Below the pieces are notes generated by a model that was not told the DNA's origin, did no database searches, and saw only the letters and a program-made list of their open reading frames with translations. Positions 10,501 to 34,643 of a stretch of 64,000 nt of DNA are shown here, one piece after another; the first letter of the stretch is position 1, and every line of letters begins with the position of its first letter. A program made the position numbers and the translations under genes. Source of the DNA: Myxococcota bacterium (GTDB lineage Bacteria > Myxococcota_A > UBA9042); assembly GCA_964201005.1 (NCBI GenBank), contig CAXNCS010000002.1, forward strand, positions 14,773 to 78,772. The letters are read 5' to 3'.

Positions 10501-10529
10501 TTGACGATGCCGATCTGCTGGCGTAGGCT
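10501..10529 (+). promoter_or_regulatory. candidate sigma70-type promoter for the Ser/Thr kinase gene
   Basis: TTGACG (10501-10506), a 17-nt spacer, then TAGGCT (10524-10529), about 70 nt upstream of ATG 10598. Pattern match only. Confidence 0.25.
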
Positions 10530-10597
10530 CCGCGACCGCGGCCGGACTGCGCGGCGCTTCTGCACAAGGCCGATTCCGCAGCGGTATCAGGGGAAGC

Positions 10598-16352: not shown

Positions 16353-17570
16353 TTATCCAGCCGCCAACTGCACGTCGCGAATGAGCATCTCCTGAATTTT
16401 CAGGGTGGTCGCATAGTCTTCGTGGCGGGCGATCAGGCAGCCGTCGGACAGCAGCGTCTGCTTCCAGTCGCGGCGCTGGGCGCCAATCGGCAGCAAATCG
16501 ACGGCCACCAGCGCCCCGCCCAAGCGCGCCTTGACCTCAGACAGCCCGGAAATGCGCTGGATCCGCCCTTGGCCCACCGCGCGCTTGAACACGCAGGTCA
16601 CGTGGTATTTGCGCGCCGCCACCTGCTCAAACGCACCCCAGCAGACCGAGCGGGCCCACTCGCGATACACGTCAAAGTCATTGGCAAAATTCATCTGGTC
16701 GACCAGCCTACCGCCCGGCGCGCGCGCGGCAATCTCGCCAAAGACGATCTCGCCGTTGCCCTTGCGGTACCACTCCATGTGGGTAAAGCCGGTGCCCATG
16801 CCCATCGCCGCCAGCACCCCGCGGCCAAACTGCACGGCGTCCTGCAGCTGCGGGATGTGCGGGTCGCGCAAGACGATTTGCGCCGGCGACAGCCACTCCT
16901 GCGTGCGCGAAAGCAGCGGCCGCGGGTGGTACTGGGCCACCGAGTCAAACGCGACCTTGCCGCCTATACACACAGTATCGTAGGTGAATTCTTCGCCGTC
17001 GATGAATTCCTCCACGCTCATCTCCGGCACGTGGGCGACCTTGCGCAGCACCACTTCCAGGGCCGCGGCGTCGTCCACGCGGTGGGTGTCGCGGGTGCCA
17101 GCGCCATCGATCGGCTTGACAATCAAGGGGTAGCCGATGCGCTCTGCCGCCACCCGCACTTCCGCCGCTGTGCGCACTTTGGCGTGGCGGGGCACGCGCA
17201 GCCCGGCGACTTCAAGGCGCTGCTTCATCAGGTCCTTGTCTCGAAAAGCCCTGGCATCGTCAGGCCTTTGCCCAACCACCCCCAGGGCCTGGCGCAGCCT
17301 CGCCGCTAGCTCGACCCCCACTTCCCACAGGCACTCGATGCGGTCCGGCGCCAGCCTCTCCAGCTGCGGCAGGGCGTGGCGCACCGCGCTCTCTTCGTCC
17401 AGCAGGTTGGGCACGCGGATGTAACCCGTGAGGTACTTGCGCACCTCTGGAGCCAACGACTCCGCCGGGTCGTGGCCGAGGCCATACACCTGCGCGCCGA
17501 CTTCCGCGAGACCACGGGTAAAGTGCGGCATCTCCAAAGGGTAATTTGGCGAAATGAAAACGACTTTCAA
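16353..17570 (-). CDS. ATP-grasp ligase (L-amino-acid-ligase-like), paralog 1
   Basis: TTG start at 17570 with a GAGGT SD 5 nt upstream. ATP-grasp core: KDLMKQRLEVAGLRVPRH, IGYPLIVKPIDGAGTRDT, VEEFIDGEEFTYDTV, GFTHMEWYRK, FGEIAARAPGG. It is colinear with the neighbouring paralog. Confidence 0.85.
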   Translation of the reverse strand: MKVVFISPNYPLEMPHFTRGLAEVGAQVYGLGHDPAESLAPEVRKYLTGYIRVPNLLDEESAVRHALPQLERLAPDRIECLWEVGVELAARLRQALGVVGQRPDDARAFRDKDLMKQRLEVAGLRVPRHAKVRTAAEVRVAAERIGYPLIVKPIDGAGTRDTHRVDDAAALEVVLRKVAHVPEMSVEEFIDGEEFTYDTVCIGGKVAFDSVAQYHPRPLLSRTQEWLSPAQIVLRDPHIPQLQDAVQFGRGVLAAMGMGTGFTHMEWYRKGNGEIVFGEIAARAPGGRLVDQMNFANDFDVYREWARSVCWGAFEQVAARKYHVTCVFKRAVGQGRIQRISGLSEVKARLGGALVAVDLLPIGAQRRDWKQTLLSDGCLIARHEDYATTLKIQEMLIRDVQLAAG

Positions 17571-17606
17571 ATTAACCTCGGGCGATGGCGGCAGTAAGGT
17601 AGGATG

Positions 17607-18830
17607 CTAGCGGGCGTACACGCGCACCGTGCGGCCAACCCACTCGCAGATCTCGCGCAGCTGGTCGTAATCCGGGTGGCGCAAGCGGATCCAGGCGTTG
17701 GCCATGTACCCCGCATCCACAGGCTGGGTCGCATGGCCCACCGGCGGCAGGTGCCAGTCGATCAGCATGTGGCCGATGCGCCGCTGCACTTCGTCAAAGC
17801 CAGAGTAGCCGGCGATCCGCCCATCGCGATCGGGGCGCAGCGCCACCATCGCCGCGGCAAACTGGCGCGACGGCTGCTGATCCAGGCGGCCGTGGCACAC
17901 CGCCATCGCCCACTGCCGGTAGATGTCAAAGCCGTTGGCCGCGCAGTACAGGTCCCAGGTGCCCACGCCAGGGGGACGCGCGCCAATCTCGCTAAATTTC
18001 AGACCTTTGGGCCCGTAGAACCACTCCATGTGCGTCGGCGTGGTGCCCAGACCCATGGCGCCGATCACCTTGCGGCCCATCAGCTTGACCTCGTCGTAAC
18101 CCGGCAGATCCACGCGATTGGTCGTAATGAAGTACGGCGACACGTTGCGGGTGCGCATGGCCTCCAGCACGCCCGGGTAGTAGTGCGTGACAAACTCGAG
18201 GTGCACGTGGCTGTCGATGCTCAGGGTGTCGTAAAAGCCCTCGTGGCCCTCGATAAACTCCTCGATCGCGCAAGAACCGCCGCGGCCCAGATTGAATTCG
18301 CGCGTGGCGGCCAGGAGTTGTTCGTGGCTGTCGACGCGGCTCGTGCCCGAAGCCCCCGCTCCGGCGCGCGGCTTGACGATCAGCGGGTAGCCGACGCGCT
18401 CGGCGAATTTGCGCGCCTCCTCAAAGGAATCCGCGCCGGTGGACTGGGCAGTCGCCACGCCGTTTTCGCGGAGGAACTCCTTCATGGTCGGCTTGTCTCG
18501 GCAGAGGATCGCGTTGCGCGCGGTCAGGCCGGGGATGCCGGTCAGCTCGCGAACCCGCGACGCAGAGAGGATGTGCGCCTCGACCGTGGCCTCCAGCCGA
18601 TGGACCCAAGGCCCGCGCTGCTGAATCCGCCGCACCGCCGCGAGCAACTGCTCGTCATCGCAGACGTTGCTGACCTGCTCATAGCCGTCGAGCCAGGACT
18701 TGAGCTCGCTGTCAAAGCCGCTGGCCGGCCACTCGCCAATGCCGGTGACAAACGCCCCCACCTGCTTGAGGGCCCGGGCGAACTGGCGCTGATTCGCCGG
18801 AAAATGCGGCGCGATGAGGATGACGTGCAT
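17607..18830 (-). CDS. ATP-grasp ligase (L-amino-acid-ligase-like), paralog 2
   Basis: ORF 17607..18875 trimmed to ATG 18830 (MHVILIAPHFPANQ), with a GGAGG SD 7 nt upstream. Motifs: VGYPLIVKPRAGAGASGT, IEEFIEGHEGFYDTL, PTHMEWFYG, FSEIGARPPG. Confidence 0.85.
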   Translation of the reverse strand: MHVILIAPHFPANQRQFARALKQVGAFVTGIGEWPASGFDSELKSWLDGYEQVSNVCDDEQLLAAVRRIQQRGPWVHRLEATVEAHILSASRVRELTGIPGLTARNAILCRDKPTMKEFLRENGVATAQSTGADSFEEARKFAERVGYPLIVKPRAGAGASGTSRVDSHEQLLAATREFNLGRGGSCAIEEFIEGHEGFYDTLSIDSHVHLEFVTHYYPGVLEAMRTRNVSPYFITTNRVDLPGYDEVKLMGRKVIGAMGLGTTPTHMEWFYGPKGLKFSEIGARPPGVGTWDLYCAANGFDIYRQWAMAVCHGRLDQQPSRQFAAAMVALRPDRDGRIAGYSGFDEVQRRIGHMLIDWHLPPVGHATQPVDAGYMANAWIRLRHPDYDQLREICEWVGRTVRVYAR

Positions 18831-19024
18831 AGGGGCCTCCCGGCGGGCTCGCCGACTGAGCCGCGATGGTGGCACAACCTCCCTGTCCGTCCAAGGGGCC
18901 GCAGATCCGCGGATGGCTTTTGCCCGCCGCGCGCATGTGCGATCATCCGCGGTTCGCGCGCTGGGCGCCCCAGCATCGGGCCCACCGCCGCCGCCGTACG
19001 CTCTTTGGGGGCCACAGGACGACC

Positions 19025-19963
19025 ATGACCAAGATCACCCTGCTCGGCCCGCAGCGGCACTCGATTACCGTGACCGAAGAGATCGAGAGGCTCAATCTGC
19101 ACGGGCGGATTGGCGCAATTACCGCTGGTTGGCAAGAGCGCGAGGCCGAGGACGACGAACTGCAAGAGGCCATCGGCCACCGCGCCGTCAACCTGCTGCT
19201 GCACCACCGCGCTGAGCGAATGTTCCATGAAGACGCGGAGTTGTTTCGCGCCCATCGCGCCCGCCAAGACATCCTGCGCCAAATGCAGGACTTGTATCGC
19301 GTGCGCCTCGATGCCTACCTGGGGGCTGCCCAAGCGCTGCACCACCGCGGCGGTCCAGAGGATTTGCTCGCCCCCGAGTGCGACGGTGCGGTCGAAACCC
19401 TGCGCGAACTCGATCGCCACCACCTGGAGCGCATCCACCAGGTTCACGCGCGGTTTGACGCGGAAATGAAGCCGTCGAGTCGCTGGTCCGTGTGCAAACA
19501 GCGCGACGAGATTGCCGAAACGCTGGGCGACTGCCCGATCGTGGCGATCGCCGGCGGCAATGTCGCCACGCTGCTGACGCGCATCCGCCTGCTTGGGGTC
19601 GATACGTTGCTGCACGGCAAGGCGATCGTCGCGTGGTCGGCCGGGGCGATGGTGCTGACCGACCGGGTGGTGCTGTTTCACGACCGGCCGCCAGAAGGGC
19701 CTGGCAACGCGGAGGTTCTGGATGCCGGCCTGGGGCTGCTGCCTCACGTCGTCGCCCTGCCCCACGCCACCAAGAGGCTGCGCATGGACGATACCCAGCG
19801 CATGGCCTTGTTTGCCCGGCGGTTTTCGCCGTCGATGTGCCTGGCCCTGGATCCGTTCAGCCGGGCGCGCTGGGATGGCCACAATTGGCAACTGCACGAA
19901 GGGACCTGGGTGCTGGGGCGCAATGGCCAGCTGGGCGCCGCAGAAATTCCCTTGGTTCCGTAG
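19025..19963 (+). CDS. peptidase S51 (PepE/cyanophycinase)-like, class I glutamine-amidotransferase-like fold
   Basis: ORF 18866..19963 trimmed to ATG 19025 (MTKITLLGPQ). IVAIAGGNVATLL and AWSAGAMVL match the GGN(T)F..L and G.SAGA nucleophile-elbow motifs of the S51 family. A helical insert of roughly 100 aa is atypical. Confidence 0.55.
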   Translation: MTKITLLGPQRHSITVTEEIERLNLHGRIGAITAGWQEREAEDDELQEAIGHRAVNLLLHHRAERMFHEDAELFRAHRARQDILRQMQDLYRVRLDAYLGAAQALHHRGGPEDLLAPECDGAVETLRELDRHHLERIHQVHARFDAEMKPSSRWSVCKQRDEIAETLGDCPIVAIAGGNVATLLTRIRLLGVDTLLHGKAIVAWSAGAMVLTDRVVLFHDRPPEGPGNAEVLDAGLGLLPHVVALPHATKRLRMDDTQRMALFARRFSPSMCLALDPFSRARWDGHNWQLHEGTWVLGRNGQLGAAEIPLVP

Positions 19964-23107: not shown

Positions 23108-23884
23108 TCAGGGCTTGGGCAGGTCGCAGGTGCCGGCCTTGTCAAAGCACAGGCCGCCCACGCAATAGGCGCCGGGGCACTCCGTCGACGCGGTGCAGGC
23201 CTTGCGCTCGCACTGGGCATTCTGGCAGGCAAACTGCGCGGGACAATCGCCGTCCTTGCCGCAGCTCTTGACCTTGCAGTGGTGATCCGCCGCGCACACC
23301 TGACCTTGGACGCACTGGTCGTCTTTGGTGCAGCCCTCGTAGCACAGCGGGATCTTGTCGCACAGGCAGTTGTCGGTGCGCAGCTCGCAGATGCCGTTGG
23401 GCATGGCGGAACACTCGGAGTCAGCGCTGCAGCCGGGACCTTCGGGCTTCATGCACATGCCGCAGCCGCCAAAAGCACCGGGCTTGAGGCAGTAGGCGCC
23501 CGGCATCTTGTCGCACGTGACCTCAGCGCTGCAGCCGCCGGCGGGGACGGGCGGGTTGCTGGTGTCTGCGACCGCGTCGATGCCCGTGTCGACCGCGACA
23601 TCTGCCGCCGAGGCATCTGCAGCGTCTCCACTGGTCTCTGCTGCGTCGGCCACCGCGATGTCTGCGCTGGCATCCGCGGCGGAATCTGCGGCCATATCGG
23701 CGCCCGTCAGCGTATCCACCGCCGAGTCTGCAGCCCCGCCGTCTGCGGCATCGGCGTCCGAGCTGCCCACAGACAGGTCCGCCTGCGTGTCCGGCGTGCC
23801 CGCCGAGGAGGTACCGGTCGACGACTCGCAACCTGCCGCGGCAATAAAGGCCAAAGCCAGGACAGAAAAGGCGATGCGCTTCAC
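23108..23884 (-). CDS. Cys-rich lipoprotein with acidic D/A/S/T tether
   Basis: Start is GTG 23884 with a GGAGG SD 5 nt upstream (VKRIAFSVLALAFIAAAGC, lipobox). The tether is rich in DA/DS/DT. The C-terminal ~130 aa contain about 26 Cys (CSADSECS, CTKDDQCVQGQVC, CGKDGDCPAQFAC, CTASTECPGAYC). Confidence 0.75.
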   Translation of the reverse strand: MKRIAFSVLALAFIAAAGCESSTGTSSAGTPDTQADLSVGSSDADAADGGAADSAVDTLTGADMAADSAADASADIAVADAAETSGDAADASAADVAVDTGIDAVADTSNPPVPAGGCSAEVTCDKMPGAYCLKPGAFGGCGMCMKPEGPGCSADSECSAMPNGICELRTDNCLCDKIPLCYEGCTKDDQCVQGQVCAADHHCKVKSCGKDGDCPAQFACQNAQCERKACTASTECPGAYCVGGLCFDKAGTCDLPKP

Positions 23885-23909
23885 AAGAACCTCCAGCGGA
23901 CGGGCCGTC

Positions 23910-26900
23910 TTACTTGCAGGTGCAGTCCAGATCGATCTGGTAGTCATCAACCGCGCCCTCATAGCCGTCCACTACGACATAGTAGGTCTTGCCAGAGGTG
24001 ACCGCAAAGGACTTGGTCGCGGTATCGTCGATCATGAGCGCGTGCGAAGTGCAGCTCGCCGGGCCGCACGCCTTGGCGCCGTCCAGGATGAACAGGTCCA
24101 AGTAGCCGGTGCCCGTGGCGGTGCTGCGCGTGACCGTGGCCGTGGCGGTGCCGGTGCAGGTGGCCTTGTACGTGTAGGTGTACTCCGGGCCGGCATAGCT
24201 GGTCGCGGTGCCGTCGGCGCAGGCCCAGGTGCTGATCAGCTTGGTGCTGCCCGGCCCGCCGTTGTTGTAGAAGTCGCTGCCGCCGCAGGCCAGCTCGTAG
24301 TCCGGCTTGCAGATGTTGGCAGAGACTTGGCACGCGGCGTTCTTGGCGCAGTCGCTGTCGGCACAGTCGATCTTGCCGTCCTTGTCGTCGTCGAGCTTGT
24401 CGGTGCAGTTGGTCTCCGTGGTCGGCGCGGCGCAGGCACAGGCAATCTTGAGGGTGTAGCCGGCCGAGTAGCCGTTGTAACCGTCGACAACCACGTTGTA
24501 CTTGGCGCCCTTCTTGGCGGTCCACTTGACCGTCGCCGTCGTGCCGCTCATCAAGCTGTGCACCAGGCAGCTGTTGCCCGCGCAGACCTTGGCGCCGTCC
24601 AGCACAAACAGGTCCAAGAAGCCCGAGGTGCTGGCGGTCTTGGTCAGCGTCGCGGTCACGGTGCCGTCGCAGGTAGCCACGTAGTCATAGGTGTATTCGC
24701 TGCCCGTTTCGCCGCTCATCTGGCCGTCGGCGCACTGGTAGGCGCTGATCGCCTTGGTGCTGCCGGTGCCGTTACTCGTGTACGTGTCGCTGTCGCCGCA
24801 GGTCATGGCGTAGTCCGGCTTGCACACCGCGCTGGTTTGGCAGGCGGCGTTGGCGGCGCAGTCGCTGTCGGCGCAGTCGGTCTTGCCGTCCTTGTCGTCG
24901 TCGAGCTTGTCGGTGCAGTTGCTCTCCTTGGCCGGCACGATGCACGCCGGGTCCTTGGCGCAGTCGGCGTCGGCGCAGTCGGTCTTGCCGTCTTTGTCGT
25001 CGTCGAGCTTGTCGCTGCACTTGGTCTCGGTCTTGGGCAAGCAGACCACGTTGGCCGCGCAGTCGCTGTCGGCGCAGTCGGTCTTGCCGTCCTTGTCGTT
25101 GTCCTGCTTGTCGGCGCAGAGGATTTCCACGCCGGGGCCCGCGCACGCCGGGAAGGTCGCGCAGTCGCTGTCGGCGCAGTCGGTCTTGCCGTCCTTGTCG
25201 TCGTCCAGCTTATCTTCGCACTTGCTCTCGACCGCGGGGGTGCAGGCGGCGTCCTTGGCACAGTCGGCGTCGGCGCAGTCGGTCTTGCCGTCCTGATCGT
25301 CGTCGACCTTGTTGCCGCACTTGTCTTCGACCTTGGGCACCACCGCGCACTTGCACACGGTCTTGACGCTGTAGCCGCCCTGGAAGCCCTGGTAGCCATC
25401 CACCACGATGTTGAGCTTCTGGCCCGCCTTGACCGCCACGGTCTTGGTGGCGACGTTGTTGGTCATCAGCGTGTGGCCGATGCAGGCCTTGCTGCCGCAC
25501 AGCTGGCCGCCGTCCAGAATGAACAGGTCCAAATAGCCTTGGGCGGTGGCGGTCTTGGTCAGGGTCACGGTCAACTCGCCGTTGCACTCGGCCACGTGGT
25601 TGTAGGTGTACTCGCTGCCCGTCTCATTGCCCACGGTGCCGTCGGCGCAGACGTAGGTCGATACGGCCTTGGTCGAACCGACGCCGTTGCTGGTCCAAGA
25701 ATCGCTGTCGTTGCAGGTCAGATCGTAGTCCGCTTTGCACGCGCAGGCGCCCAAGCCAGAGCAGTCGGGGTCGGCGCAGTCGATGAGGCCGTCCTTGTCG
25801 TTGTCCAGCTTGTCGCCGCAGAGCAGCTCGGTCGAGGTGGACGCGCAAGCCAAATCCTTTGCACAATCCGTGTCCTGGCAGTCGAGCTTGCCGTCCTTGT
25901 CGTTGTCGACCTTGTCATTGCACACGGTCTCGGTCGTCGCCACGATGCAGCTCGGGTTCTTGGCGCAGTCGCTGTCGGCGCAGTCGGTCTTGCCGTCTTT
26001 GTCGTCGTCCAGCTTGTCCGCGCACTGGGTCTCCGTCGCGGCAGGGGCGCAGGCAACCGCGGCGATGCAGTCCGCGTCGGCGCAATCGGTCTTGCCGTCC
26101 TTGTCATTGTCCAGCTTGTCGGCGCAGTTCTGTTCGGTCGGCGTGGCCTGGCACACCAGGCTCAGGGCGCAGTCGCTGTCCAGGCAGTCGAGCTTGCCGT
26201 CCTTGTCGTTGTCGATCTTGTCGGCGCAACTGGTCTCCACCGAGGGCGCGCAGGCGAGTTCCGCAGCGCAGTCAGCGTCCGCACAGTCGATCGCGCCGTC
26301 GCCGTCGTTGTCGGCCTTGTCGGCACAGGCGGTCTCTTTGCCACCGGCGCAACCGCAGGCGATCTTGAGCGAATAGTCGCCGCTAAAGCCCTGATAGCCG
26401 TCCACGACGATGAAGAACTTCTGGCCCTTCTTGGCCTGGAAGGTCTTGGTCGCCTGCGATCCGCTCATCAGCGCGTGGGCCGTGCAGGCCGAGCTGAGGC
26501 AGCCCTTGGCCGCGTCGAGCACAAACAAGTCCAGGAAACCCTGCTGGGTGCTGGTCTTGACCAGGGTCGCGGTGACCGGGCCGTCGCACTGGGCCGTGTA
26601 GCTGTAGGTGTACTCCGCGCCGGTCTCGCCGTTGGCCTTGCCGTCCGTGCAGTCGTAACCGCTGATGGCCTTGGTCGAGCCCGAGCCGGCGTTGTTGTAC
26701 TTCTCCGTGTTGCCGCAGGTGATGGCAAAATCGTCCTGGCAAGCGCTGGCTTGGCACGCAAGGTCCACTTTGCAGTCGGCGTCGGCGCAGTCGGTCATGC
26801 CGTCCTTGTCGTCGTCCAGCTTGTCGGCGCAATTGGTCTCTTTGCCAGCGCACGCGGCGTCTTTGGCGCAGTCCGTGTCGGCGCAGTCCAGCTTGCCGTC

Positions 26901-28415
26901 CTGGTCGTTGTCGACCTTGTCATTGCAGGAGGTCTCGGTGGTGGGGCCGGCGCACTGCTTCTTGCACACCGTGCCGACCTGCTCCACGCAAATGTCGTCC
27001 CAAGCCGTGTCGCAGCAGTACGCGTCCGCCTTGCACACCAGGGCGATGCACGGATCGCAGCCGGGCTTGAGCGTGTCTTCAATCGGCTTGCAGATGTCGC
27101 AGGTGACCTTGCAGGCCGCGTCCGCCGCGCAGTCCAGGTCGCCGCAGTCCACCGCGCCGTCCTTGTCGTCGTCCAGTTTGTTGGTGCAATTGGTCTCTTT
27201 GGCCAGCGCCGCACACGCAGAATTCTTGGCGCAGTCGCTGTCCTTGCAGTCAATCGCCCCGTCCAGGTCGTCGTCTTTGCCGTCGGTGCAGTTGGCTTCC
27301 ACCGTCACGGTCACGGCACAGGGCGGCGCGAGGCTGCAGTCGTTGTCTTTGCAGTCCGTGGAGCCGTCCAGGTCGTCGTCTTTGCCGTTGACGCAGTCGA
27401 GTTCCTTGGCCGCCTTGCACGCCGCATCGGCCGCGCAGTCGCTGTCGTCGCAGTCGACTTTGCCGTCCTTGTCGTCGTCGATCTGGTCGGCGCAGTTGGC
27501 CTCCTTGATGGCGAGCGCGCAAGCCGGGTCCGTCGCACAGTCGTTGTCCGCGCAGTCCGCCGCGCCGTCGCCGTCTTCGTCCTTGCCGTCCTTGCAGTCA
27601 ACTTCGCTGGTCGGCTTCAGGCACGCCGCATCCGCCGCACAGTCGCTGTCCAGGCAGTCGATCTTGCCGTCGCTGTCGTCGTCTTTGCCGTCCGTGCACA
27701 GCTTCTCGCTGGGCAGCGTGGTGCATGCGGCGTCGTTGGCGCAGTCGTTGTCGTTGCAGTCAAACAGGCCGTCTTTGTCGTCGTCGGCGCCGTTCTTGCA
27801 GTCTGTCTCGGTCCCGGTCGGGTTGCAGGTGTTCTTGCCGGGCTTGCAGCTGCCCGCGTCGCACAGGTCGTCCGCGGTGCAGTTGTCGCCGTCATCGCAA
27901 GGCGCCGTGTTGGGCGTTGCCACACAACCCTTGGTTTTGTCGCAGAGATTGTCGGTGCACGGGTTCGAGTCGTCGCAGCTCTTGGGCTTGCCGCCGCCGC
28001 ACTTGCCGGCGCTGCAGCTGCGCTCGGTCCAGCACAGATTGCCGTCGTCGCAAGCCTCTCCGTCGCTCGCTTCGCCGGCTTGGCACTGGCCGGTGGTCAG
28101 GTCGCACACGGCCTTCTCGCAGACCAGCAGGTTGCTGACCTTGCCCGCGCATTCGTCGTCGCTGACGCAGCCGCTGGGCGCCGTGTCCTTGATGTCGATG
28201 ATCGCCGTGTCGCCTTTGCTGTCCGTCTTGGTGTCGCCCAAGTTGATCGCAGAATCTTGAGTGATTCCGTCAGCCCCACCGGCGGTGGTCGGCTGGTTTT
28301 GGGTGCTGTCGCCACAGCCGGCAGCCGCCATGGCCAGGGCGCCGCAAAGGGCCGCGAGCTGCAGGTAGCCGCGCGAGGTCACCGCGCCGGTCATTCGCTG
28401 ATGCAAGTAACGCAT
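23910..28415 (-). CDS. giant (1501 aa) modular Cys-rich Ca-binding surface lipoprotein: 21 TSP3-like D-rich repeats and 4 PPC-like beta-sandwich domains
   Basis: ATG 28415 with a GGAG SD 8 nt upstream (MRYLHQRMTGAVTSRGYLQLAALCGALAMAAAGC, lipobox). The N-terminus has CDDxNxCTxDxC-type modules. There are 21 copies of (T/K)E.xC.DK.D(D/N)D.DG..DC.D.DC.....C. There are four ~130-aa domains of the form CKPDY..C..SD.Y...G.GSTKAIS.Y.CADG...ETGSEYTY...LDLF(V/I)LDG....C....L.......G.K...VVDGY.G..G.Y.LK..C.C, which resemble pre-peptidase C-terminal (PPC) domains. Confidence 0.85.
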   Translation of the reverse strand: MRYLHQRMTGAVTSRGYLQLAALCGALAMAAAGCGDSTQNQPTTAGGADGITQDSAINLGDTKTDSKGDTAIIDIKDTAPSGCVSDDECAGKVSNLLVCEKAVCDLTTGQCQAGEASDGEACDDGNLCWTERSCSAGKCGGGKPKSCDDSNPCTDNLCDKTKGCVATPNTAPCDDGDNCTADDLCDAGSCKPGKNTCNPTGTETDCKNGADDDKDGLFDCNDNDCANDAACTTLPSEKLCTDGKDDDSDGKIDCLDSDCAADAACLKPTSEVDCKDGKDEDGDGAADCADNDCATDPACALAIKEANCADQIDDDKDGKVDCDDSDCAADAACKAAKELDCVNGKDDDLDGSTDCKDNDCSLAPPCAVTVTVEANCTDGKDDDLDGAIDCKDSDCAKNSACAALAKETNCTNKLDDDKDGAVDCGDLDCAADAACKVTCDICKPIEDTLKPGCDPCIALVCKADAYCCDTAWDDICVEQVGTVCKKQCAGPTTETSCNDKVDNDQDGKLDCADTDCAKDAACAGKETNCADKLDDDKDGMTDCADADCKVDLACQASACQDDFAITCGNTEKYNNAGSGSTKAISGYDCTDGKANGETGAEYTYSYTAQCDGPVTATLVKTSTQQGFLDLFVLDAAKGCLSSACTAHALMSGSQATKTFQAKKGQKFFIVVDGYQGFSGDYSLKIACGCAGGKETACADKADNDGDGAIDCADADCAAELACAPSVETSCADKIDNDKDGKLDCLDSDCALSLVCQATPTEQNCADKLDNDKDGKTDCADADCIAAVACAPAATETQCADKLDDDKDGKTDCADSDCAKNPSCIVATTETVCNDKVDNDKDGKLDCQDTDCAKDLACASTSTELLCGDKLDNDKDGLIDCADPDCSGLGACACKADYDLTCNDSDSWTSNGVGSTKAVSTYVCADGTVGNETGSEYTYNHVAECNGELTVTLTKTATAQGYLDLFILDGGQLCGSKACIGHTLMTNNVATKTVAVKAGQKLNIVVDGYQGFQGGYSVKTVCKCAVVPKVEDKCGNKVDDDQDGKTDCADADCAKDAACTPAVESKCEDKLDDDKDGKTDCADSDCATFPACAGPGVEILCADKQDNDKDGKTDCADSDCAANVVCLPKTETKCSDKLDDDKDGKTDCADADCAKDPACIVPAKESNCTDKLDDDKDGKTDCADSDCAANAACQTSAVCKPDYAMTCGDSDTYTSNGTGSTKAISAYQCADGQMSGETGSEYTYDYVATCDGTVTATLTKTASTSGFLDLFVLDGAKVCAGNSCLVHSLMSGTTATVKWTAKKGAKYNVVVDGYNGYSAGYTLKIACACAAPTTETNCTDKLDDDKDGKIDCADSDCAKNAACQVSANICKPDYELACGGSDFYNNGGPGSTKLISTWACADGTATSYAGPEYTYTYKATCTGTATATVTRSTATGTGYLDLFILDGAKACGPASCTSHALMIDDTATKSFAVTSGKTYYVVVDGYEGAVDDYQIDLDCTCK

Positions 28416-28608
28416 GGAACAGACTCCATTTTTGCTGATCAAACTCAGCGCACAGCCATCCGCCTGTCGCAGTCAAGAGCCGCGGAGCAGGGGCCCCCCG
28501 TCGCCTCTGCGACGCCCATTCAAGACACAGGGGCGCAATAGGGTACGGAGCCGGCAGGGGCCCGTCAATCGGCAATTTCGGCATTTGTCCTGGAGCGAGA
28601 TGGAAATG

Positions 28609-29088
28609 CTACGGGCTGTGGGAGCACTGCCCGGTTTTGGGCTCACAGCTGTCTGCGGTGGCGGGTTCGCCGTCGTCGCACTTGGCTGCCGCGCGGCACT
28701 GGGGGCCTTCGCCCGCGTCGGCGCACTCATCGCCCACGGTGCAGAGATCGCCGTCGCTGCAAGGCCCGGCAAACAGCTCGGATCGACATTGACCGCTGAC
28801 GGTATTGCAGAAATCGACGCTGCAGACATTGGCGTCGTCGCAAAGGCCGTGGGCGCACGCGTATTGCACGGGCGTGCAGGATTTCTTGAGGCAGACGCCG
28901 CTCTGGCAATCAGCTGTCGATTGGCAAGGTTGGGCGCAGAATCCGCCGATGCACAGACCGCCTTCGCCGCAGGGTCCTTCGCCGCTGCACGGATCGCTGG
29001 ACCAGCGCCGCGGCGGATCGGTGCAGGCGCAGAGGGCCATGGCGGCGATCGCCAAGCTCACTCGCAGTGCCAGCGACGCTGGGCTCAT
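28609..29088 (-). CDS. small Cys-rich lipoprotein
   Basis: ATG 29088 with a GGGGGAAAGG SD. MSPASLALRVSLAIAAMALCAC carries a lipobox. About 24 Cys occur in 135 aa, including CDDANVCSVDFCNTVSGQC and CSDGDLCTVGDEC modules shared with the giant protein and with the 61.6-kb gene. Confidence 0.7.
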   Translation of the reverse strand: MSPASLALRVSLAIAAMALCACTDPPRRWSSDPCSGEGPCGEGGLCIGGFCAQPCQSTADCQSGVCLKKSCTPVQYACAHGLCDDANVCSVDFCNTVSGQCRSELFAGPCSDGDLCTVGDECADAGEGPQCRAAAKCDDGEPATADSCEPKTGQCSHSP

Positions 29089-29107
29089 CGCCTTTCCCCC
29101 GGCGCTC

Positions 29108-30577
29108 TCAGCGCTTTTTGCCGCCAGCTAGGCCCTGGGCAGAGATGCGCGTGCACTCTTCCTGCACGGCAGCGCTCGCATACCCCGTGCTCAGCACCAG
29201 CTCGCAGTCCTGGAGACAATGCGCCAAATCCTTGGTCTTTCCGCGGCACGACTGCACGCGCTGCTCATCCGCCAGCTGCGCCAGCGACTGCAGCGAGCGC
29301 TGGGCATCGGCGCCGTACACTGAGGCCGTGGGGACTTGCTTGTGGTAGCGAATCGCCGAGCGGAAATCCCGCCGCTTAAACGCCTCTTCGGCCTGGGCAA
29401 TGTCGGCACCTGCCCGCTCTTCCAAGGCGATGTTGTTCAGATTCTCCTTGGGCTCGGCGGCGGCAACGTCCAAGGTGCGCGCTTTGGTAAAGAAGCCCTT
29501 GGCCTCTGCCCACTGCTTGCGCAGCACCGCGTCGCGCCCGCGGGCCACCAAGTCGTCGTATTGGGCCTGCTGAGCGGCCTTGTCGGCGGCTTTGGAGCGG
29601 GGCGGCGCGGCTTCGCGCTCATCGCCTTTGTCTTCGGCCTCGTCGTTCCTGAAGCTCTTGGAGGCGCTGGTCTTTTTGTCCTTGGCCTCGGCCGCCGTGT
29701 CCGCCCGCGGGTCCAAGCGCGGCGCCACAAAGCGATCGTAAGCGACGCCCACCAGCACCACCAGCGCCACCAGTGCCACCAGAATCACTGCAACGGCAGC
29801 AATTTGCGGCAAAAGTGTTCGCTGCGGCGCGGCAGCGTAGGCGGGCTCGACCGGATGCTCCACCGGGGCAAAGGCCTGATGGGCGCGCTGAGCGTACACA
29901 GACGCTTGGCGGCGAGGCGGCGCGGCGGCGGGCGGCTGATCGATATCGGCGACATCGAGCTCAGGCAAGCCTTCAACTTGAAACGAAAATGCCACCGTGC
30001 CAAAGCGGATTCTGTCGCCGTGCTGCAGCTCTTGCAGGTCCACCCGGCGATCGTTGACATAGGTGCCGTTGGACGACCGCAGGTCCTCGACCAGCACCCG
30101 CCCGGCGTCATCCTGGGTGATTTTGGCGTGAATGCGGGAGACGGAGACGTCCTGCAGCACCACCGCGCAGTCCTTGCCGCGGCCGATCAGCACCGTGGGC
30201 TGCGTCAGCTCGGTCAGCTCGCCGATGCTCCCCGGCATGGGCAGCAAGCGGGCGTAGACCGGCGAGGTCATCGGCCGGGCAAAGGCGGCCCCCTCGATAT
30301 GCAAAAAGAAATCGCCGATGCGCACTTGAGCCGAGCGCGGCAATTCGGTCACCGCGTGGATGCGCCGGCCATTGACCCACACGCCGTTGGCCGCCTTGAG
30401 ATCCTCGATATAGCAGCGCCCGTCCTGGGTAAAGACCCGGGCGTGGCGGCGCGACACGTTGTCCGCAGACAGCTGTATGTCGGCCTGCTGGCTGCGACCG
30501 ATGATGAACTCGCCTTCTTCAAACGAGTACTCGCCGATCAGCGCACCGTGCTTGTCTTCGATGATCAGCGTGAACAA
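29108..30577 (-). CDS. tandem-FHA, single-pass membrane protein with helical/TPR-like periplasmic domain
   Basis: TTG start at 30577 with a GGAGG SD 7 nt upstream. FHA1: FIIGRSQQADIQLSADNVSRRHARVF..DLKAANGVWVNGRRI. FHA2: VLIGRGKDCAVVLQDVSVSRIHAKI..DLRSSNGTYVNDRRV. A TM helix (IAAVAVILVALVALVVLVGVAY) follows, then a charged region and a helical C-terminal region. Confidence 0.85.
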   Translation of the reverse strand: MFTLIIEDKHGALIGEYSFEEGEFIIGRSQQADIQLSADNVSRRHARVFTQDGRCYIEDLKAANGVWVNGRRIHAVTELPRSAQVRIGDFFLHIEGAAFARPMTSPVYARLLPMPGSIGELTELTQPTVLIGRGKDCAVVLQDVSVSRIHAKITQDDAGRVLVEDLRSSNGTYVNDRRVDLQELQHGDRIRFGTVAFSFQVEGLPELDVADIDQPPAAAPPRRQASVYAQRAHQAFAPVEHPVEPAYAAAPQRTLLPQIAAVAVILVALVALVVLVGVAYDRFVAPRLDPRADTAAEAKDKKTSASKSFRNDEAEDKGDEREAAPPRSKAADKAAQQAQYDDLVARGRDAVLRKQWAEAKGFFTKARTLDVAAAEPKENLNNIALEERAGADIAQAEEAFKRRDFRSAIRYHKQVPTASVYGADAQRSLQSLAQLADEQRVQSCRGKTKDLAHCLQDCELVLSTGYASAAVQEECTRISAQGLAGGKKR

Positions 30578-30616
30578 CTGCAGCCTCCGGGGGAGCGGAC
30601 CGCAAAAAGCTGAGGG

Positions 30617-32713
30617 CTACAGGGCGGCGCGCACTGCTTCCGGAGACAAATCGACCAGCGTACGCCCGCCCGTGCGGTGCCGCGCCACCTCAAAGACTTC
30701 GCCCAGCACCCAGCCGCCGGCGCCATCGGGCACAAACACCGCCACCGCGTCCAGACCGCGCAGCGCCCGCGCCTCCGCCACAGACTCGGGCAACCCAGGA
30801 TAGCGCATCAGAAGCGAGTGCTTGGCGCGCTCCAGGAAGTCGGGACCGTCATTGGCAGAGAAGACGGCGATCCACGGCGGCAGACCCTCGGCCTGCACGG
30901 CGAACAGCTCATCGGGGCCCACCGCGGCCGAATCGCCGATCAGCAGCCAATCGGGGCGAAGCCGCTGCACCACCCGCAGGGGCGAGCTGTGGGAACCGTC
31001 GTTGAAGCTGGCGGCATCCACGCGGACCACGTGATCGTGGTGCAGGCGCAAGCGCTGACCGTCTTCCAGCACCACCAGCCGCGCGTCGGGCTGAATGAGG
31101 TTGGTCAAGGCATTGAGCACGGTGCGCTTGCCGGCGCGCGGCGGCCCAACCACGGCGATCGAGCGATTGCGCGCAACGAGTTCCGCAAGGGTTTCAGCCA
31201 CCTGCGGCGTGACCGTGCCGCGACCGACCAGCTGCTCCAAGTCCGGAGCGTCGGTGCGCGGTTTGCGCAGAAGCACCGCCGGACCGGCCGGGCAGAGAGG
31301 CGGCCAGACGACGAACACAGACGTGCCATCGACCAGTGTGCCTTCCAGCGACGTACCCGAGCGCCCGGTCTGCCCCGTGGCCCGAACTAGCCGATCGACG
31401 GCAAGGGCCAAGGCCTGCTGGCAGCTGAACCGCTCCGTGGCCGCCTCGCGCTTGCCGCGGCGCACGACGTAGACCTGGGCGGGACCGTTGACCTCAATAG
31501 CCTCGATCTCCGCGTCGTCCAACATCAATTCCAGCGGTCCCAGGCCTGCGAGCTCGTAGATGAGCTCCAAGCGAAGCCGCGCCACATCGGCCTCCGGCGG
31601 AATTTCGCCAGCCGCCGCGCACTGATCGACAAAGGCGGTGACCCGATCTTCCATCTCGGCCCAGTCGCTGTCCGACATCTGCGAGGCGTCAGAAGGCAGC
31701 GCGGGGCGCAAATCGCGCATGGCATTGCGGAAAAGCACCGCCAGCTGGTCGTGATGGCCTTCGGGCGGCGGCGCCGTAGGCAGGTCAGGCAATTCCGGAG
31801 CCTGCTGAGGCGGCAAGACGGGGACTGAAGCAGGGCCAGCCGCGGCGGCCGCACCATAGGGCCTGGCAGGTGCCGCTGCGTGACCATCCGCGGCCACCTG
31901 ACCGCTCACATAAGCGGCAGCGCGCGCCGCTTCGGCCGGGGCGGGGGCAAAATTCGGCAGGCCCACAGCCGGCTTGGGCGGTGCGGCCGCTGCCTGTGGC
32001 CCTGTGGTCGGTGCTTTGATCGCGCCCGCCAATCCCGGGATGTTGGCCAGCGCCGAACCCGGGCGGAACATATTGGCCTGGGCCATCGCGTCGACGGGCC
32101 CCGTGAGCCGCTCAAAGTAGTCGGGCTCCTGGGACTCGCCCTGCAACTGCACAAGTTCATTGGGCATATCTAGGGGCTCGACCGCCGGCAGGTCCGACAT
32201 CAGGCCGTCGCCAAAGCCTTCGCCCATGTCCATGTCGGCCAGCGTTGTCGGCGGGGGCACGGCAATGGGCCCTTGCATGTGCTGGGTGGCGCGAATGCTC
32301 TGGGCGGACTCGGCGGGCGCTGCCGCAGCAAGCCCACTGATTTCAGGCAGATCAGCGTCCGAAAATCCCGCGCCCAGCTCAAGCCCCGGCGGCACTTCTG
32401 GAGGCGCCGAGCTCGACATGTCATTGAGATCCGTGAAATTCATCACGAAATCGCCAATATAGACTTTGTCATCTGCGCCAACCTCGACCGCGGTGGCGAT
32501 GCGGTGGCCGTTGACGTAAGTGCCGTTGGTAGAACCGAGATCCTCCACGACAAAGCGCTTGCCCTCGGCCTTGACCAGGGTGTGGCGCTTGGAAATGTTC
32601 TGCTTTGGCAGGATGACGTCGTTGCCCTTGACCCGGCCGATGAGGACCTCGGGCTTGTCGAAGTGGAAGGTGTAGACCTGACCGCTTCGTTCCCGGATCG
32701 TAATGGCGAACAT
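30617..32713 (-). CDS. FHA domain fused to a (partly degenerate) CpaF/VirB11-type secretion ATPase
   Basis: ORF trimmed to ATG 32713 (GGAG SD). FHA: VLIGRVKGNDVILPKQNISKRHTLV..DLGSTNGTYVNGHRI. A Pro/Ala-rich linker of ~240 aa follows. The ATPase core reads ELAGLGPLELMLDDAEIEAIEVNGPAQVYVVRRGK, with Walker A VVGPPRAGKRTVLNAL and Walker B-like RLVVLEDG. The usual GE.RG.E and TGH boxes are not recognisable. Confidence 0.8.
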   Translation of the reverse strand: MFAITIRERSGQVYTFHFDKPEVLIGRVKGNDVILPKQNISKRHTLVKAEGKRFVVEDLGSTNGTYVNGHRIATAVEVGADDKVYIGDFVMNFTDLNDMSSSAPPEVPPGLELGAGFSDADLPEISGLAAAAPAESAQSIRATQHMQGPIAVPPPTTLADMDMGEGFGDGLMSDLPAVEPLDMPNELVQLQGESQEPDYFERLTGPVDAMAQANMFRPGSALANIPGLAGAIKAPTTGPQAAAAPPKPAVGLPNFAPAPAEAARAAAYVSGQVAADGHAAAPARPYGAAAAAGPASVPVLPPQQAPELPDLPTAPPPEGHHDQLAVLFRNAMRDLRPALPSDASQMSDSDWAEMEDRVTAFVDQCAAAGEIPPEADVARLRLELIYELAGLGPLELMLDDAEIEAIEVNGPAQVYVVRRGKREAATERFSCQQALALAVDRLVRATGQTGRSGTSLEGTLVDGTSVFVVWPPLCPAGPAVLLRKPRTDAPDLEQLVGRGTVTPQVAETLAELVARNRSIAVVGPPRAGKRTVLNALTNLIQPDARLVVLEDGQRLRLHHDHVVRVDAASFNDGSHSSPLRVVQRLRPDWLLIGDSAAVGPDELFAVQAEGLPPWIAVFSANDGPDFLERAKHSLLMRYPGLPESVAEARALRGLDAVAVFVPDGAGGWVLGEVFEVARHRTGGRTLVDLSPEAVRAAL

Positions 32714-32881: not shown

Positions 32882-33583
32882 TCAATAAGCCGCCTGCAAT
32901 GCGGCCGCAAGTTCGCTGGGCTGATCCTGCCAGGCGCGCAGCACCGCCACGGAGGCGCCGCTGCCCCAGACTTCCGCAGCTTGACCCGCGCCAATGCCGC
33001 CAAGCGCTACAATTTGACCTGGATACATCGCGGCGGCCTGCTTGAGCGGCCCCCATCCCAGGGCTTGAACCCCGGGCTTGGACGGCGTGGCGAACAGCGG
33101 CGAAAGCGACACCCAGGTCGCCCCCTGCTGCAGCGCCTGCCCTACCCCCTCCAGGTCGTGGCACGAACGCGCCAACGCCATGGCACCTGTGGGCTCGCGC
33201 AGAACCCGCGTCCAGGCCGGCGCGTCGCCCTCGCCGATCTGGATCCAGGCCACCCCGGCGCGCTCAAGGGCGGCCAACTGGCTCGGCAGGTCGCCAAAAA
33301 GCGCAGTCTCTGGCTGCCTGGGCGCGCTAATGCCCAGCCGTAGGCCAAAATCCCGCAGCCAGTGCAGCTCGGCCAGCGTCTCCAGCCACCGGTCGGCGGC
33401 GCAGCCGTGCAGGCGCAAATGCAGACCGACCTGGCCGGGATGGTGGCGAAAGGCCGAAGCCAACCGCCCCACCGCAAAAGCAAAGGCGTGGCGGCGCAGC
33501 GGATCCTGCCACAGCGGCGCATCGGCAATCGCAATGAGCCGCGGGGGAGGAGTCTGGAGTTGGAGATCGGCGGGCGGCGGCAC
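32882..33583 (-). CDS. thiE: thiamine-phosphate synthase-like (divergent ThiE)
   Basis: GTG start 3 nt after the thiG stop. The C-terminal half SCHDLEGVGQALQQGATWVSLSPLFATPSKPG...IVALGGIGAGQAAEV matches the ThiE TIM-barrel phosphate-binding pattern. The N-terminus is divergent. Confidence 0.65.
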   Translation of the reverse strand: MPPPADLQLQTPPPRLIAIADAPLWQDPLRRHAFAFAVGRLASAFRHHPGQVGLHLRLHGCAADRWLETLAELHWLRDFGLRLGISAPRQPETALFGDLPSQLAALERAGVAWIQIGEGDAPAWTRVLREPTGAMALARSCHDLEGVGQALQQGATWVSLSPLFATPSKPGVQALGWGPLKQAAAMYPGQIVALGGIGAGQAAEVWGSGASVAVLRAWQDQPSELAAALQAAY

Positions 33584-33586
33584 GGG

Positions 33587-34372
33587 TCAGCCCAGCAGGC
33601 CGGTCAGCGGACTGGAAGCGCTGGCGTAGAGCTTGCGCGGCATGCGCCCCGCCAAGTAGGCATCGCGGCCGGCCAAAATGCCCAAGCGCATCGCCCGCGC
33701 CATCCGCACTGGGTCCTGGGCGCAGGCAATCGCCGTGTTCATGAGCACGGCCGTGCAGCCCAGCTCCATGGCCAAGGCAGCGTCGCTTGCAGTGCCCACG
33801 CCCGCGTCCACCAGCACCGGCACCGTGGCTTGCTCCAGAATAATCTGCAGGTTGTGGGGATTGCGGATGCCCAGGCCAGAGCCGATAGGTGCACCCAAGG
33901 GCATCACCGCGGCGCAGCCGATGTCCTGGAGCTTCTTGCACAGCACCGGGTCATCAGTAATGTAGGGCAACACAACAAAGCCTTCTGCGATCAAGACTTT
34001 GGCCGCGTCAAAGGTCGCCTGATTGTCGGGAAACAGGGTCTTTTGGTCGCCGATGACCTCGAGCTTGATCAGATCGCCCATGCCGGCCTCGCGGGCCAAG
34101 CGGGCGTAGCGGATGGCGTCTTCCGCGGTGTAGCAGCCGGCAGTATTGGGCAACAGGGTGTGGCGGCTGCGGTCCAGGGCGCTCAGGACGTTCTCTGCCG
34201 CGGAGAAATCGACTCGGCGCACGGCCACGGTGACGATCTCTGCAGCGGATTCATCAATCGCGGCGCGGGCTACGGCGTTGTCAGCGTACTTGCCGGTGCC
34301 GACCAGCAGCCGCGAATTGAATGTGCGGCCGGCCAAGGTCCAGGTGTCGGGGGCGGTGATCGCGGGGCTCAT
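33587..34372 (-). CDS. thiG: thiazole synthase ThiG
   Basis: [49 protein letters not shown] and [14 protein letters not shown] are canonical ThiG motifs. A GGAG SD is present. Confidence 0.95.
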
Positions 34373-34421
34373 GGGGACTCCAAGATGGGGCTAGAAAGGG
34401 CGATGGGGCGGCCAGATGGCG

Positions 34422-34643
34422 TTAGCCGCCGCCGACAAACTGAACAATTTCGATATTATCGTGCGCTTGCACCACGGTCGTGGGATGATCAGCGCGGCGA
34501 ACGACAGCGCGGTTGCGCTCCACGGCGACCCCAAAGCTGGCCACGCCCAGATCGCGCAGCAGGTCCGCCACGCTGCAGCCGGCGGCGATCTGCTTGGCTT
34601 CGCCGTTGAGGGTGATCTCGATGATCGCTGAGGAATCGCTCAT
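34422..34643 (-). CDS. thiS: sulfur-carrier protein ThiS
   Basis: 73 aa: MSDSSAIIEITLNGEAKQI...IEIVQFVGGG, ending in the activating GG. It is hidden inside track ORF 34422..34973. Its ATG (34643) shares one base with the TGA of the upstream O-antigen-ligase-like gene (TGATG). Confidence 0.85.
   Translation of the reverse strand: MSDSSAIIEITLNGEAKQIAAGCSVADLLRDLGVASFGVAVERNRAVVRRADHPTTVVQAHDNIEIVQFVGGG

Follow-up and report, generated by a model that had tools for sequence, protein, structure and literature searches.

A KilF–KilD-like gene pair with a degenerate ATPase site, detached from pilus genes, in uncultured Myxococcota

Introduction

What might an FHA-fused, CpaF-type gene be doing where no gene for a secretin, platform, pilin or prepilin peptidase accompanies it? 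The question is raised by a 64-kb stretch of Myxococcota DNA (the window, in which positions are counted here unless another locus is named), where five genes, labelled g1–g5 in transcription order, lie co-directionally on the minus strand at 23108-32713. Open reading frame (ORF) analysis confirms this arrangement, with the gaps of 39, 19, 193 and 25 nt first reported for it, and Pfam matches to FHA and T2SSE, a transmembrane helix and helical tail in an AlphaFold2 (AF2) model, and lipoboxes bear out the domain reading: an FHA–CpaF-like protein (g1), an FHA–FHA membrane protein (g2) and three Cys-rich lipoproteins (g3–g5). The original prediction went further, proposing that all five form one functional unit in which phosphothreonine (pThr) signals gate an ATPase-coupled step acting on the lipoproteins, and that the locus might be connected to the myxobacterial Kil system.

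In Myxococcus xanthus, KilF of the Tad-like Kil predation apparatus is an FHA-fused CpaF protein, and kilD, right behind its gene, codes for an FHA and TPR protein that is needed for killing (MXAN_3107/3108; PMC8460266). KilF and KilD cluster at prey contacts, KilD doing so even without the Tad core, and the Kil genes of this organism are split over two distant clusters (PMC8460266). The spatial determinants of Kil are still called unknown, with FHA proteins named as untested candidates (PMC12428579; bioRxiv 10.64898/2026.07.08.737194). Here, we find that the evolutionarily conserved unit of the locus is g1–g2, and that this pair is, by its sequence relationships, a paralogue of the kilF–kilD pair with a probably dead ATPase site, detached from Tad and pilus genes. 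The searchable literature yielded no account of such a pairing, a dead CpaF/KilF paralogue with a KilD-like partner.

Results

The g1–g2 pair across relatives

The two genes at the center of this report are as follows.

30617-32713, minus strand: g1, 698 aa, ATG start with GGAG before it; FHA domain, disordered Pro/Ala linker and CpaF-like core (three-helix bundle, N-terminal domain, C-terminal ATPase-like domain); predicted pseudo-ATPase
29108-30577, minus strand: g2, 489 aa; FHA-FHA, transmembrane helix and TPR-like helical tail; KilD-like

Coding on the minus strand is backed for all five genes by ORF analysis and by G+C content at third codon positions (GC3), in a window whose overall G+C is 64-69%. 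Compared with locus L001 of a 96%-identical lake metagenome-assembled genome (MAG), the ratio of nonsynonymous to synonymous substitution rates (dN/dS) is 0.07 for g1, 0.04 for g2, 0.07 for g3, 0.06 for g4 and 0.15 for g5, at dS of ~0.25-0.36. Because all five ratios are this low at a dS of ~0.3, we take g1–g5 to be real genes under purifying selection.

A scan of one genome per species gave 32 loci, all from uncultured and mostly freshwater Myxococcota MAGs, with 31 clade loci, and synteny was assessed by tblastn of the window proteins and ORF inspection in the 29 loci long enough to be informative. In every one of these (29/29) g2 comes next after g1, the g1 proteins being 38-96% identical to that of the window, and thiG lies upstream of g1 in 26/29. 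The same order recurs in two distant Myxococcota loci, L036 (8259-13134) and L037 (6128-11398), where thiS-thiG-thiE precede a degenerate FHA-CpaF-like gene and an FHA-FHA-transmembrane-TPR gene, the last of which shares the exact N-terminus of g2, MFTLIIEDKHG.

The lipoprotein genes follow the pair far less faithfully. A g3-like or other Cys-rich lipoprotein is encoded within 5 kb downstream of g2 in 9/28 loci: a g3 orthologue stands directly after g2 in L001, L005, L006 and L011 and ~2 kb off in L013 and L018, and a different Cys-rich lipoprotein is found in L008, L009 and L016. Full-length homologues of g4 and g5 occur only in L001, from the same species, and most loci have a convergent mnmG-like gene or unrelated genes after g2. 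No Cys-rich lipoprotein was found downstream of the pair in L036 or L037. Since the pair is kept in 29/29 loci and the two distant ones, with g3-like genes in 9/28 and g4 and g5 only in L001, the conserved unit on this comparison is g1–g2, with g3 a facultative neighbor and g4 and g5 lineage-specific; the five-gene functional unit does not survive the synteny check.

We therefore regard as improbable the proposal that all five genes constitute one functional operon exerting pThr-gated, ATPase-coupled control over the export, display or remodeling of g3–g5. Its appeal lies in the co-directional genes with three short gaps (39, 19 and 25 nt), in the g3 orthologue found right after g2 in four lineages and the lipoprotein neighbors seen in 9/28 loci, and in the predicted extracytoplasmic tail of g2, which could meet lipoproteins. 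It also draws on a consensus-based promoter and terminator scan across g1–g5 that found no coding-strand terminator between the genes; shuffled sequence gave more terminator-like sites than this stretch, a sigma-70-like site was likewise missing, and such a scan is uninformative for this organism. Against it stand the restriction of g4/g5 homologues to a 96%-identical MAG, the mnmG-like or unrelated genes that mostly follow g2, the bare pairs in L036 and L037, the 193-nt gap and strong ribosome-binding site of its own that precede g4, and the degenerate ATPase site of g1 described below. Cys-rich lipoproteins are moreover common in these genomes (position 60840 onward in the window, L008, L022), so that finding them next to g2 is unsurprising, and control of their export or display is left without comparative support.

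Pilus and secretion genes are equally absent from the surroundings of the pair, as the original prediction had noted for the adjacent genes. By Pfam, no long ORF of the 64-kb window belongs to a secretin, T2SSF platform, Flp/TadE pilin or prepilin peptidase family, and Tad/Kil partner families (secretin, TadB/C platform, Flp/pseudopilin, prepilin peptidase) were not found within ±10 kb of the 31 related loci. Such partner genes do accompany the canonical loci L033, L041, L042 and L043. The Hanks kinase gene that had been pointed out near 10.6 kb does exist, at 10505-12262, and was considered as a dedicated partner; this role is unsupported and was rejected, as the gene is not conserved near g1–g2, with matches limited to L005, where the kinase is an unrelated one, and L033.

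Fold and linker of g1

Within g1, three features frame its architecture.

32414-32713, minus strand: g1 FHA domain, residues 1-100; pThr-binding G26-R27, S41-x-x-H44, N63-G64; predicted local distance difference test (pLDDT) score ~96
32093-32110, minus strand: R-L-T-G-P-V linker motif, g1 residues 202-207; candidate phospho-acceptor and FHA docking site (T-x-x-V/L/I)
30620-31756, minus strand: g1 CpaF-like core, residues 320-698; fold intact, catalytic residues replaced

Pfam recognizes the FHA domain at E 6e-16 and T2SSE at E 4e-10 (39.4 bits vs a cut-off of 24.9). The top sequence match in phmmer aligns g1 ORF residues 358-673 with the whole Caulobacter CpaF core (9e24/8rkd; E 3e-28), and the top Foldseek match of the AF2 model is CpaF 8rjf_A, at E 1.8e-28 and a TM-score of 0.70 over 379 columns. 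The model places a confident FHA domain at residues 1-100, a disordered, Ala/Pro-rich linker at 102-305 and a core at 320-698 with pLDDT >90. As modeled, g1 has a PilT/VirB11-like fold of the CpaF/TadA subfamily, with a three-helix bundle, an N-terminal domain and a RecA-like C-terminal domain. Class III CpaF proteins are built as FHA, intrinsically disordered region, three-helix bundle, N-terminal domain and C-terminal ATPase domain (FHA–IDR–3HB–NTD–CAD; PMC12019362), and g1 retains this architecture and fold in full. Database annotation calls these proteins 'pilus assembly protein CpaF/TadA'.

The FHA domain is far better kept than the linker, at a mean clade identity of 82% vs 20%, and its pThr-binding residues are invariant or nearly so in the clade alignments. 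The linker itself is unalignable save for one motif: [RK]-x-T-G is present in 56/63 clade members, nearly always as R-[LMT]-T-G-[PSA]-[VLIM]. Among 58 other FHA-CpaF paralogues there are 3 loose [RK]-x-T-G matches, 0 of them with the hydrophobic residue at +3. The classic FHA ligand pattern is T-x-x-(V/L/I). The conserved motif R-x-T-G-P-[VLI] is thus a candidate FHA docking site, at which we infer phosphorylation of T204 and FHA binding.

The active site of g1

Catalytic positions were taken from the cryo-electron microscopy paper on CpaF (PMC12019362), mapped by alignment and counted in 63 members of the window's clade. In CpaF the key residues are K287 and T288 of Walker A, E312 of the Asp box, E357 of Walker B and three arginine fingers, R347 between subunits and R217 and R223 in the N-terminal domain; T288 binds Mg2+, E312 stabilizes it, E357 is the catalytic Glu, and the K287A substitution kills activity (PMC12019362). 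The Walker A element of g1 is as follows.

31121-31147, minus strand: degenerate Walker A GPPRAGKRT, g1 residues 523-531; Mg-binding Thr changed to Arg

This Thr-to-Arg change is nearly universal, the T288 equivalent being Arg in 62/63 clade members. At the K287 position the clade has Arg in 49/63 and Lys in 13/63, the window protein being one of those with a P-loop Lys, and the E312 equivalent is Arg in 54/63 and Pro in 7/63 (LEDGQR in the window). Neither N-terminal finger is ever Arg: the R217 equivalent is T, A or S (0/63 Arg), and the R223 equivalent S, T or another residue (0/63 Arg). The His-box His is replaced across the clade by Leu, Ile or another residue. Walker B is more variable, with Glu in 28, Asp in 15 and other residues in 20 of 63 at the E357 position (Asp in the window g1), and the R347 equivalent is mostly retained (R in 41, K in 10 of 63). 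By contrast, 13/13 canonical KilF-like proteins from the same search retain every one of these residues.

These assignments correct two details of the original reading. The 'VVLEDG' motif, which had been taken as Walker B-like, occupies the Asp-box position (CpaF E308-D309..E312), and Walker B corresponds to 'WLLIGD'. Of the two boxes described as unrecognizable, the His box is indeed gone, and the Asp box can be recognized in mutated form, with E312 changed to R.

A functional T2SSE ATPase is marked by Walker A G-x-x-x-x-G-K-[ST], the Asp-box Glu, the His box and the N-terminal arginine fingers, and by alignment the g1 clade departs from all of these. As the CpaF Mg2+ and gamma-phosphate residues, apart from the Walker A Lys/Arg and a variable Walker B acid, are replaced, and the replacements are themselves conserved, the 'ATPase-coupled' step of the original proposal is not supported. 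We conclude that g1 is probably catalytically dead, a predicted pseudo-ATPase. The loss appears old, specific and maintained, since the replacements are conserved in the clade while the 13 canonical KilF-like proteins keep all residues. Nor is g1 a decaying gene, given the low dN/dS of both g1 and g2 reported above and the conservation of its FHA domain.

The opposite view, that g1 still works as a motor and powers a full type IV filament machine, Tad/Kil or other, whose genes lie elsewhere in the genome, can appeal to the intact CpaF fold and the P-loop Lys of the window protein, as well as to the two distant Kil clusters of M. xanthus (PMC8460266). We consider it highly improbable: the Mg-binding Thr and the Asp-box Glu have both become Arg, the N-terminal Arg fingers and His box are lost clade-wide, the Walker A Lys whose K287A substitution inactivates CpaF (PMC12019362) is Arg in 49/63 members, and the canonical KilF-like proteins form a separate clade in a neighbor-joining tree.

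The g2 protein

The second member of the pair has three recognizable parts.

29975-30577, minus strand: g2 tandem FHA domains, residues 1-201; GR, SxxH and NG invariant in both domains
29714-29812, minus strand: g2 transmembrane helix, residues 256-288; hydrophobic; an AF2 helix between disordered segments
29126-29593, minus strand: g2 TPR-like seven-helix domain, residues 329-484; predicted extracytoplasmic; pLDDT ~97

Pfam finds two FHA domains (E 7e-40), Foldseek matches FHA structures at TM-scores of 0.8-0.9, and the pThr-binding residues are G27-R28, S42..H45 and N64-G65 in FHA1 and G132-R133, S147..H150 and N170-G171 in FHA2. In the AF2 model (mean pLDDT 85.7), the FHA pair is followed by a disordered stretch, the transmembrane helix, a short disordered Lys/Glu-rich segment and a bundle of seven helices. 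Placing this tail by Foldseek of the g2 model was uninformative, as the match list is dominated by FHA domains, and a sequence search with the tail alone gave only weak consensus matches to TPR (E 0.0075). The number of Cys residues in the tail is even in 60/63 homologues (2 in 52/63, 4 in 8/63), which fits an extracytoplasmic, disulfide-bonded domain. On this model, g2 crosses the membrane once as a bitopic protein, its two canonical FHA domains facing one side and its conserved TPR-like domain the opposite one.

The best NCBIfam match of g2 is FhaB/FipA, at a score of 129 vs a cut-off of 125 that sums two FHA domains on a one-FHA model, and we rejected membership in this family. The match nevertheless bears on a further reading, in which the pair has nothing to do with pili and regulates the envelope or growth in general, much as mycobacterial FhaA/FhaB(FipA)–PknB does, with a membrane FHA protein and a cytoplasmic FHA scaffold linking a Ser/Thr kinase to biogenesis of the cell wall or outer membrane. 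The pair occurs singly, is highly conserved and looks like part of the core genome, and its neighbors (thiSGE, mlaDE near the pair in L036 and L037, and wzy/polysaccharide genes among the housekeeping surroundings in the window) would suit such a role, as would the FhaB match, which runs through the FHA domains only. That match is not architectural, however, no specific link ties the pair to cell-wall enzymes, and the retention of a CpaF-like fold is left unexplained, so that we consider this reading quite unlikely.

Relationship to the Kil pair

We inspected the contexts of four canonical FHA-CpaF homologues, L033, L041, L042 and L043. In L033, L042 and L043, a secretin gene is followed by an FHA-T2SSE gene and then by a gene for a ~700-aa FHA(-FHA) protein, and L041 is a complete Tad cluster. 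The g2 family aligns by hhalign with the downstream proteins of L033 and L043 (probability 100, E 1e-39, 390 columns, and probability 99.9, E 1e-32, 415 columns, respectively), and these alignments span both FHA domains, the transmembrane helix and the helical tail. The suspected Kil connection holds: not only is KilF an FHA-fused CpaF (PMC8460266), g2 is homologous from end to end to the gene after canonical KilF-like genes.

Neighbor-joining on the core domain recovers the window clade as monophyletic, apart from the canonical clade and with L036/L037-type proteins as its nearest neighbors. An exhaustive profile-free search of 1.84 billion representatives recovered ~17-20 window-clade clusters (at 50% identity) and then general CpaF-like proteins. 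The whole-genome shotgun prefixes of the canonical loci (CAYUSB, JBPMMB, JAOZUO, ERZ25072999) match 0/31 clade loci.

Paralogy with KilF–KilD invites a specific version of a scaffolding role, in which g1 would act as a decoy or regulator: a dead hexamer competing with canonical KilF or a PilB/PilT-type ATPase for the platform or for KilD-type FHA partners, thereby gating assembly of a killing pilus. Retention of the fold with loss of the chemistry is typical of pseudoenzyme regulators, and the g1 FHA domain is ~55% identical, by eye, to the FHA domain of canonical KilF-like proteins. We nonetheless judge this version rather unlikely, as the pair sits in a housekeeping context (thiSGE) away from pilus genes and none of the 31 clade loci shares a sequencing-project prefix with the canonical loci.

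Canonical loci carry a Hanks kinase or PP2C phosphatase and more FHA proteins within a few kb (L042 13873-15880, L043 14076-15722, L033 1480-4227); g1–g2 loci do not. Further Myxococcota FHA-CpaF-like families (P0063-P0120; loci L034, L038, L039, L040) have a degenerate Walker A and His box, some of them lacking the P-loop Lys, and their genes stand by themselves in housekeeping surroundings. Four proteins, P0078, P0087, P0091 and P0095, were considered as members of the g1 family and set aside, being orphans among housekeeping genes with no g2-like partner and belonging to a different family. The search of 1.84 billion representatives also ranked three very long proteins, P0242, P0245 and P0246 (1156-1605 aa), relatively near the g1 core; these have two or three distinct CpaF-like stretches.

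The Cys-rich lipoproteins

The remaining three genes of the original five are given here.

28609-29088, minus strand: g3, 159 aa; Cys-rich lipoprotein; facultative neighbor of g2
23910-28415, minus strand: g4, 1501 aa, ATG start with GGAG before it; lipoprotein; lineage-specific
23108-23884, minus strand: g5, 258 aa; GTG start yields lipoprotein signal peptide MKRIAFSVLALAFIAAAGC; lineage-specific

Each of the three has a lipobox and 8-13% Cys. A pattern check gives the lipoboxes as ..AMALCAC in g3 (LCAC; LSAC in L001), ..LAMAAAGC in g4 and ..FIAAAGC in g5. A Dicty_CTDC repeat is recognized in g3 (E 2e-7), and repeats of this type are also carried by the N-terminus of g4. The g4 protein combines a Cys-rich N-terminal region with ~24 acidic double-disulfide repeats and four beta-rich modules of ~130 aa; against NCBIfam NF033662 (acidic double-disulfide repeat) it scores 481 bits vs a cut-off of 41, at E 3e-148 and with 21 copies. 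The DNA repeat period is 102 nt and the NF033662 unit ~32 aa, C..D.D.DG..DC.D.DC. The D-x-D-x-D-G-x-x-D-C motif resembles thrombospondin type 3 repeats, and by this analogy Ca2+ binding by the g4 repeats is plausible. A Pfam search of the ~130-aa modules gave no match, and their weak match to the metalloprotease C-terminal (PPC-like) domain 2luw (E 0.018) is a hint only. In g5, an acidic Ala/Asp-rich linker is joined to a C-terminal Cys-rich domain.

Proteins of this kind recur nearby. Another Cys-rich ORF (>1050 aa) with five Dicty_CTDC repeats, at 60840-63998 on the plus strand, runs off the end of the window, and similar large acidic Cys-rich lipoproteins are encoded in the related loci L008 and L022. 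A 1677-aa plus-strand ORF at 23508-28541 was considered as a gene and rejected as a shadow of g4, having a low-complexity translation in a region where GC3 favors the minus strand. AT skew is strongly negative (~-0.3) across 24-28 kb, and both the skew and the shadow ORF can be put down to the Asp/Lys/Cys-rich 102-nt repeats of g4.

Surroundings in the window

Directly upstream of g1 are the thiamine-type genes that accompany the pair in most loci.

32882-34640, minus strand: thiS-thiG-thiE-like genes, context; Pfam ThiG and TMP-TENI; the thiS ORF ends in GG

Downstream of the five-gene stretch is a thioredoxin-2-type gene. An Rfam scan of the window found no thiamine pyrophosphate (TPP) riboswitch or other RNA element, the sole match being a single tRNA gene at 44548-44620 on the plus strand. 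A PADLOC search for anti-phage defense returned no match for any of the five proteins, and we ruled out a defense system of this kind.

Farther away, an ORF for a CHASE2-adenylate/guanylate cyclase (4131-7298, minus strand) is divergent from a TPR-CHAT (caspase-like) ORF (6468-10016, plus strand); the maximal ORFs of the two overlap by ~800 nt, and their true starts are therefore uncertain. The region 16353-19963 contains a tandem pair of minus-strand ATP-grasp genes (16353-17606, 17607-18875) beside a plus-strand peptidase S51 ORF (cyanophycinase/dipeptidase E-like), and could be a small peptide or cyanophycin-like metabolism cluster.

Discussion

With somewhat better than even confidence, we favor the reading that g1 and g2 form a two-protein, pThr-dependent scaffold or regulator at the inner membrane, which shares ancestry with the KilF–KilD pair of the Kil system and is no longer a motor. 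A scaffold is preferred over a motor because purifying selection has maintained substitutions at the positions that CpaF needs for Mg2+ binding and ATP hydrolysis. In such an arrangement, a Hanks-type kinase encoded elsewhere would phosphorylate a Thr, for which T204 in the g1 linker motif is the best candidate, and the three FHA domains (one in g1, two in g2) would bind such pThr sites. These multivalent FHA–pThr contacts could tether a probably oligomeric g1 to g2 and cluster the complex, as KilF and KilD cluster at prey contacts, while the periplasmic domain of g2 might sense or contact an envelope partner, in some lineages perhaps the lipoprotein g3. The output would be regulatory rather than mechanical, serving to recruit, block or nucleate another envelope machine, most plausibly of the Tad/Kil or type IV pilus type. 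On this reading, g4, g5 and probably g3 would be surface lipoproteins that merely lie downstream in this lineage.

Several points weigh against this interpretation. The g1 clade retains the Gly-rich loop of Walker A, its Lys/Arg and the inter-subunit Arg (R347 equivalent R/K in 51/63), so that nucleotide binding, and even slow metal-independent turnover, is possible for g1, and 43/63 members still have E or D at the Walker B position. The stable thiS-thiG-thiE neighborhood indicates that gene order in this clade is generally conservative, which makes the adjacency of g1 and g2 weaker evidence of shared function. The downstream genes of L033 and L043 were equated with M. xanthus KilD by position and domain content, and any canonical Kil/Tad target of the pair in its carrier genomes is putative. 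Phosphorylation, g1–g2 interaction and oligomerization are all steps that we infer.

A bolder extension of the scaffold reading would make g1–g2 an ancient, Myxococcota-wide 'pseudo-motor'. Here, a CpaF-shaped ring in which the Mg2+ ligands have become arginines (a conserved Arg-Arg P-loop) would bind a phosphate ligand, whether nucleotide or phospho-protein, without hydrolyzing it. Multivalent FHA–pThr contacts would link the ring to a KilD-like transmembrane sensor and cluster it at the membrane, where it would be the missing spatial determinant that sets the assembly sites of the Kil pilus and other envelope machines. We offer this as a possible but doubtful idea. Were it true, it would be the first described PilT/VirB11-family pseudoenzyme with a signaling role.

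Under the scaffold reading more generally, the pair matters because it keeps just the FHA-bearing, membrane-coupling half of Kil, with catalysis and pilus genes dropped, and so isolates a signaling or scaffolding function for study. The T204 linker motif, the three FHA pockets and the Arg-Arg P-loop offer concrete handles on that function. There is also a consequence for annotation, as degenerate FHA-CpaF-like families are all automatically labelled 'pilus assembly protein CpaF/TadA' and would inflate counts of Tad systems in metagenomes; should the pair prove to be only a housekeeping regulator, the result would be a useful annotation correction and no more.

Comparison with known systems

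Among the lipoproteins, g4 and g3 match the NF033662 and Dicty_CTDC-type Cys-rich repeat lipoproteins of Myxococcota, families that have no assigned function.

For the pair itself, cytoplasmic-face FHA domains that read kinase signals or build the ring of an envelope machine are a likeness to PpkA–Fha1/TagH of the type VI secretion system (T6SS) and SctD/YscD of the type III secretion system (T3SS). The matches of g2 to TagH and SctD models are weak, however, cover the FHA domains only and fall below the family cut-offs; there are no T6SS or T3SS genes here, and the periplasmic part of g2 is TPR-like and without ring-building motifs. EssC/EccC of type VII secretion likewise combines tandem N-terminal FHA domains and a membrane anchor with P-loop domains, some of which have lost catalysis, and the EssC FHA pair (5fwh) is among the structural matches of g2. 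This likeness is an analogy only, as EssC/EccC belongs to the FtsK/SpoIIIE superfamily, g1 to PilT/VirB11, and the FHA-transmembrane and ATPase-like parts are here separate proteins.

With the CpaF/TadA class III motors (PMC12019362), g1 shares its domain order, its fold (8rjf_A, as above) and a mostly kept R347. It differs from them in T288 and E312, both changed to R, in the loss of R217/R223 and of the His box, in a variable Walker B Glu and in having no Tad partner genes.

The closest comparison is with KilF–KilD of the M. xanthus Kil system. The differences are clear: g1 lacks the catalytic residues that canonical KilF-like proteins keep without exception and falls in a separate clade; canonical loci have a secretin immediately upstream, whereas g1–g2 stands in a thiS-thiG-thiE context without secretin, prepilin peptidase, platform or pilin genes in the 64-kb window; and g2 is ~200 aa shorter at its C-terminus. 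Yet in both systems an FHA-fused CpaF-type gene is directly followed by an FHA and TPR gene (after 39 nt in the case of g1 and g2), the g2 family is homologous along its whole length to the gene after canonical KilF-like genes in L033 and L043, and all FHA domains carry the canonical pThr-binding residues.

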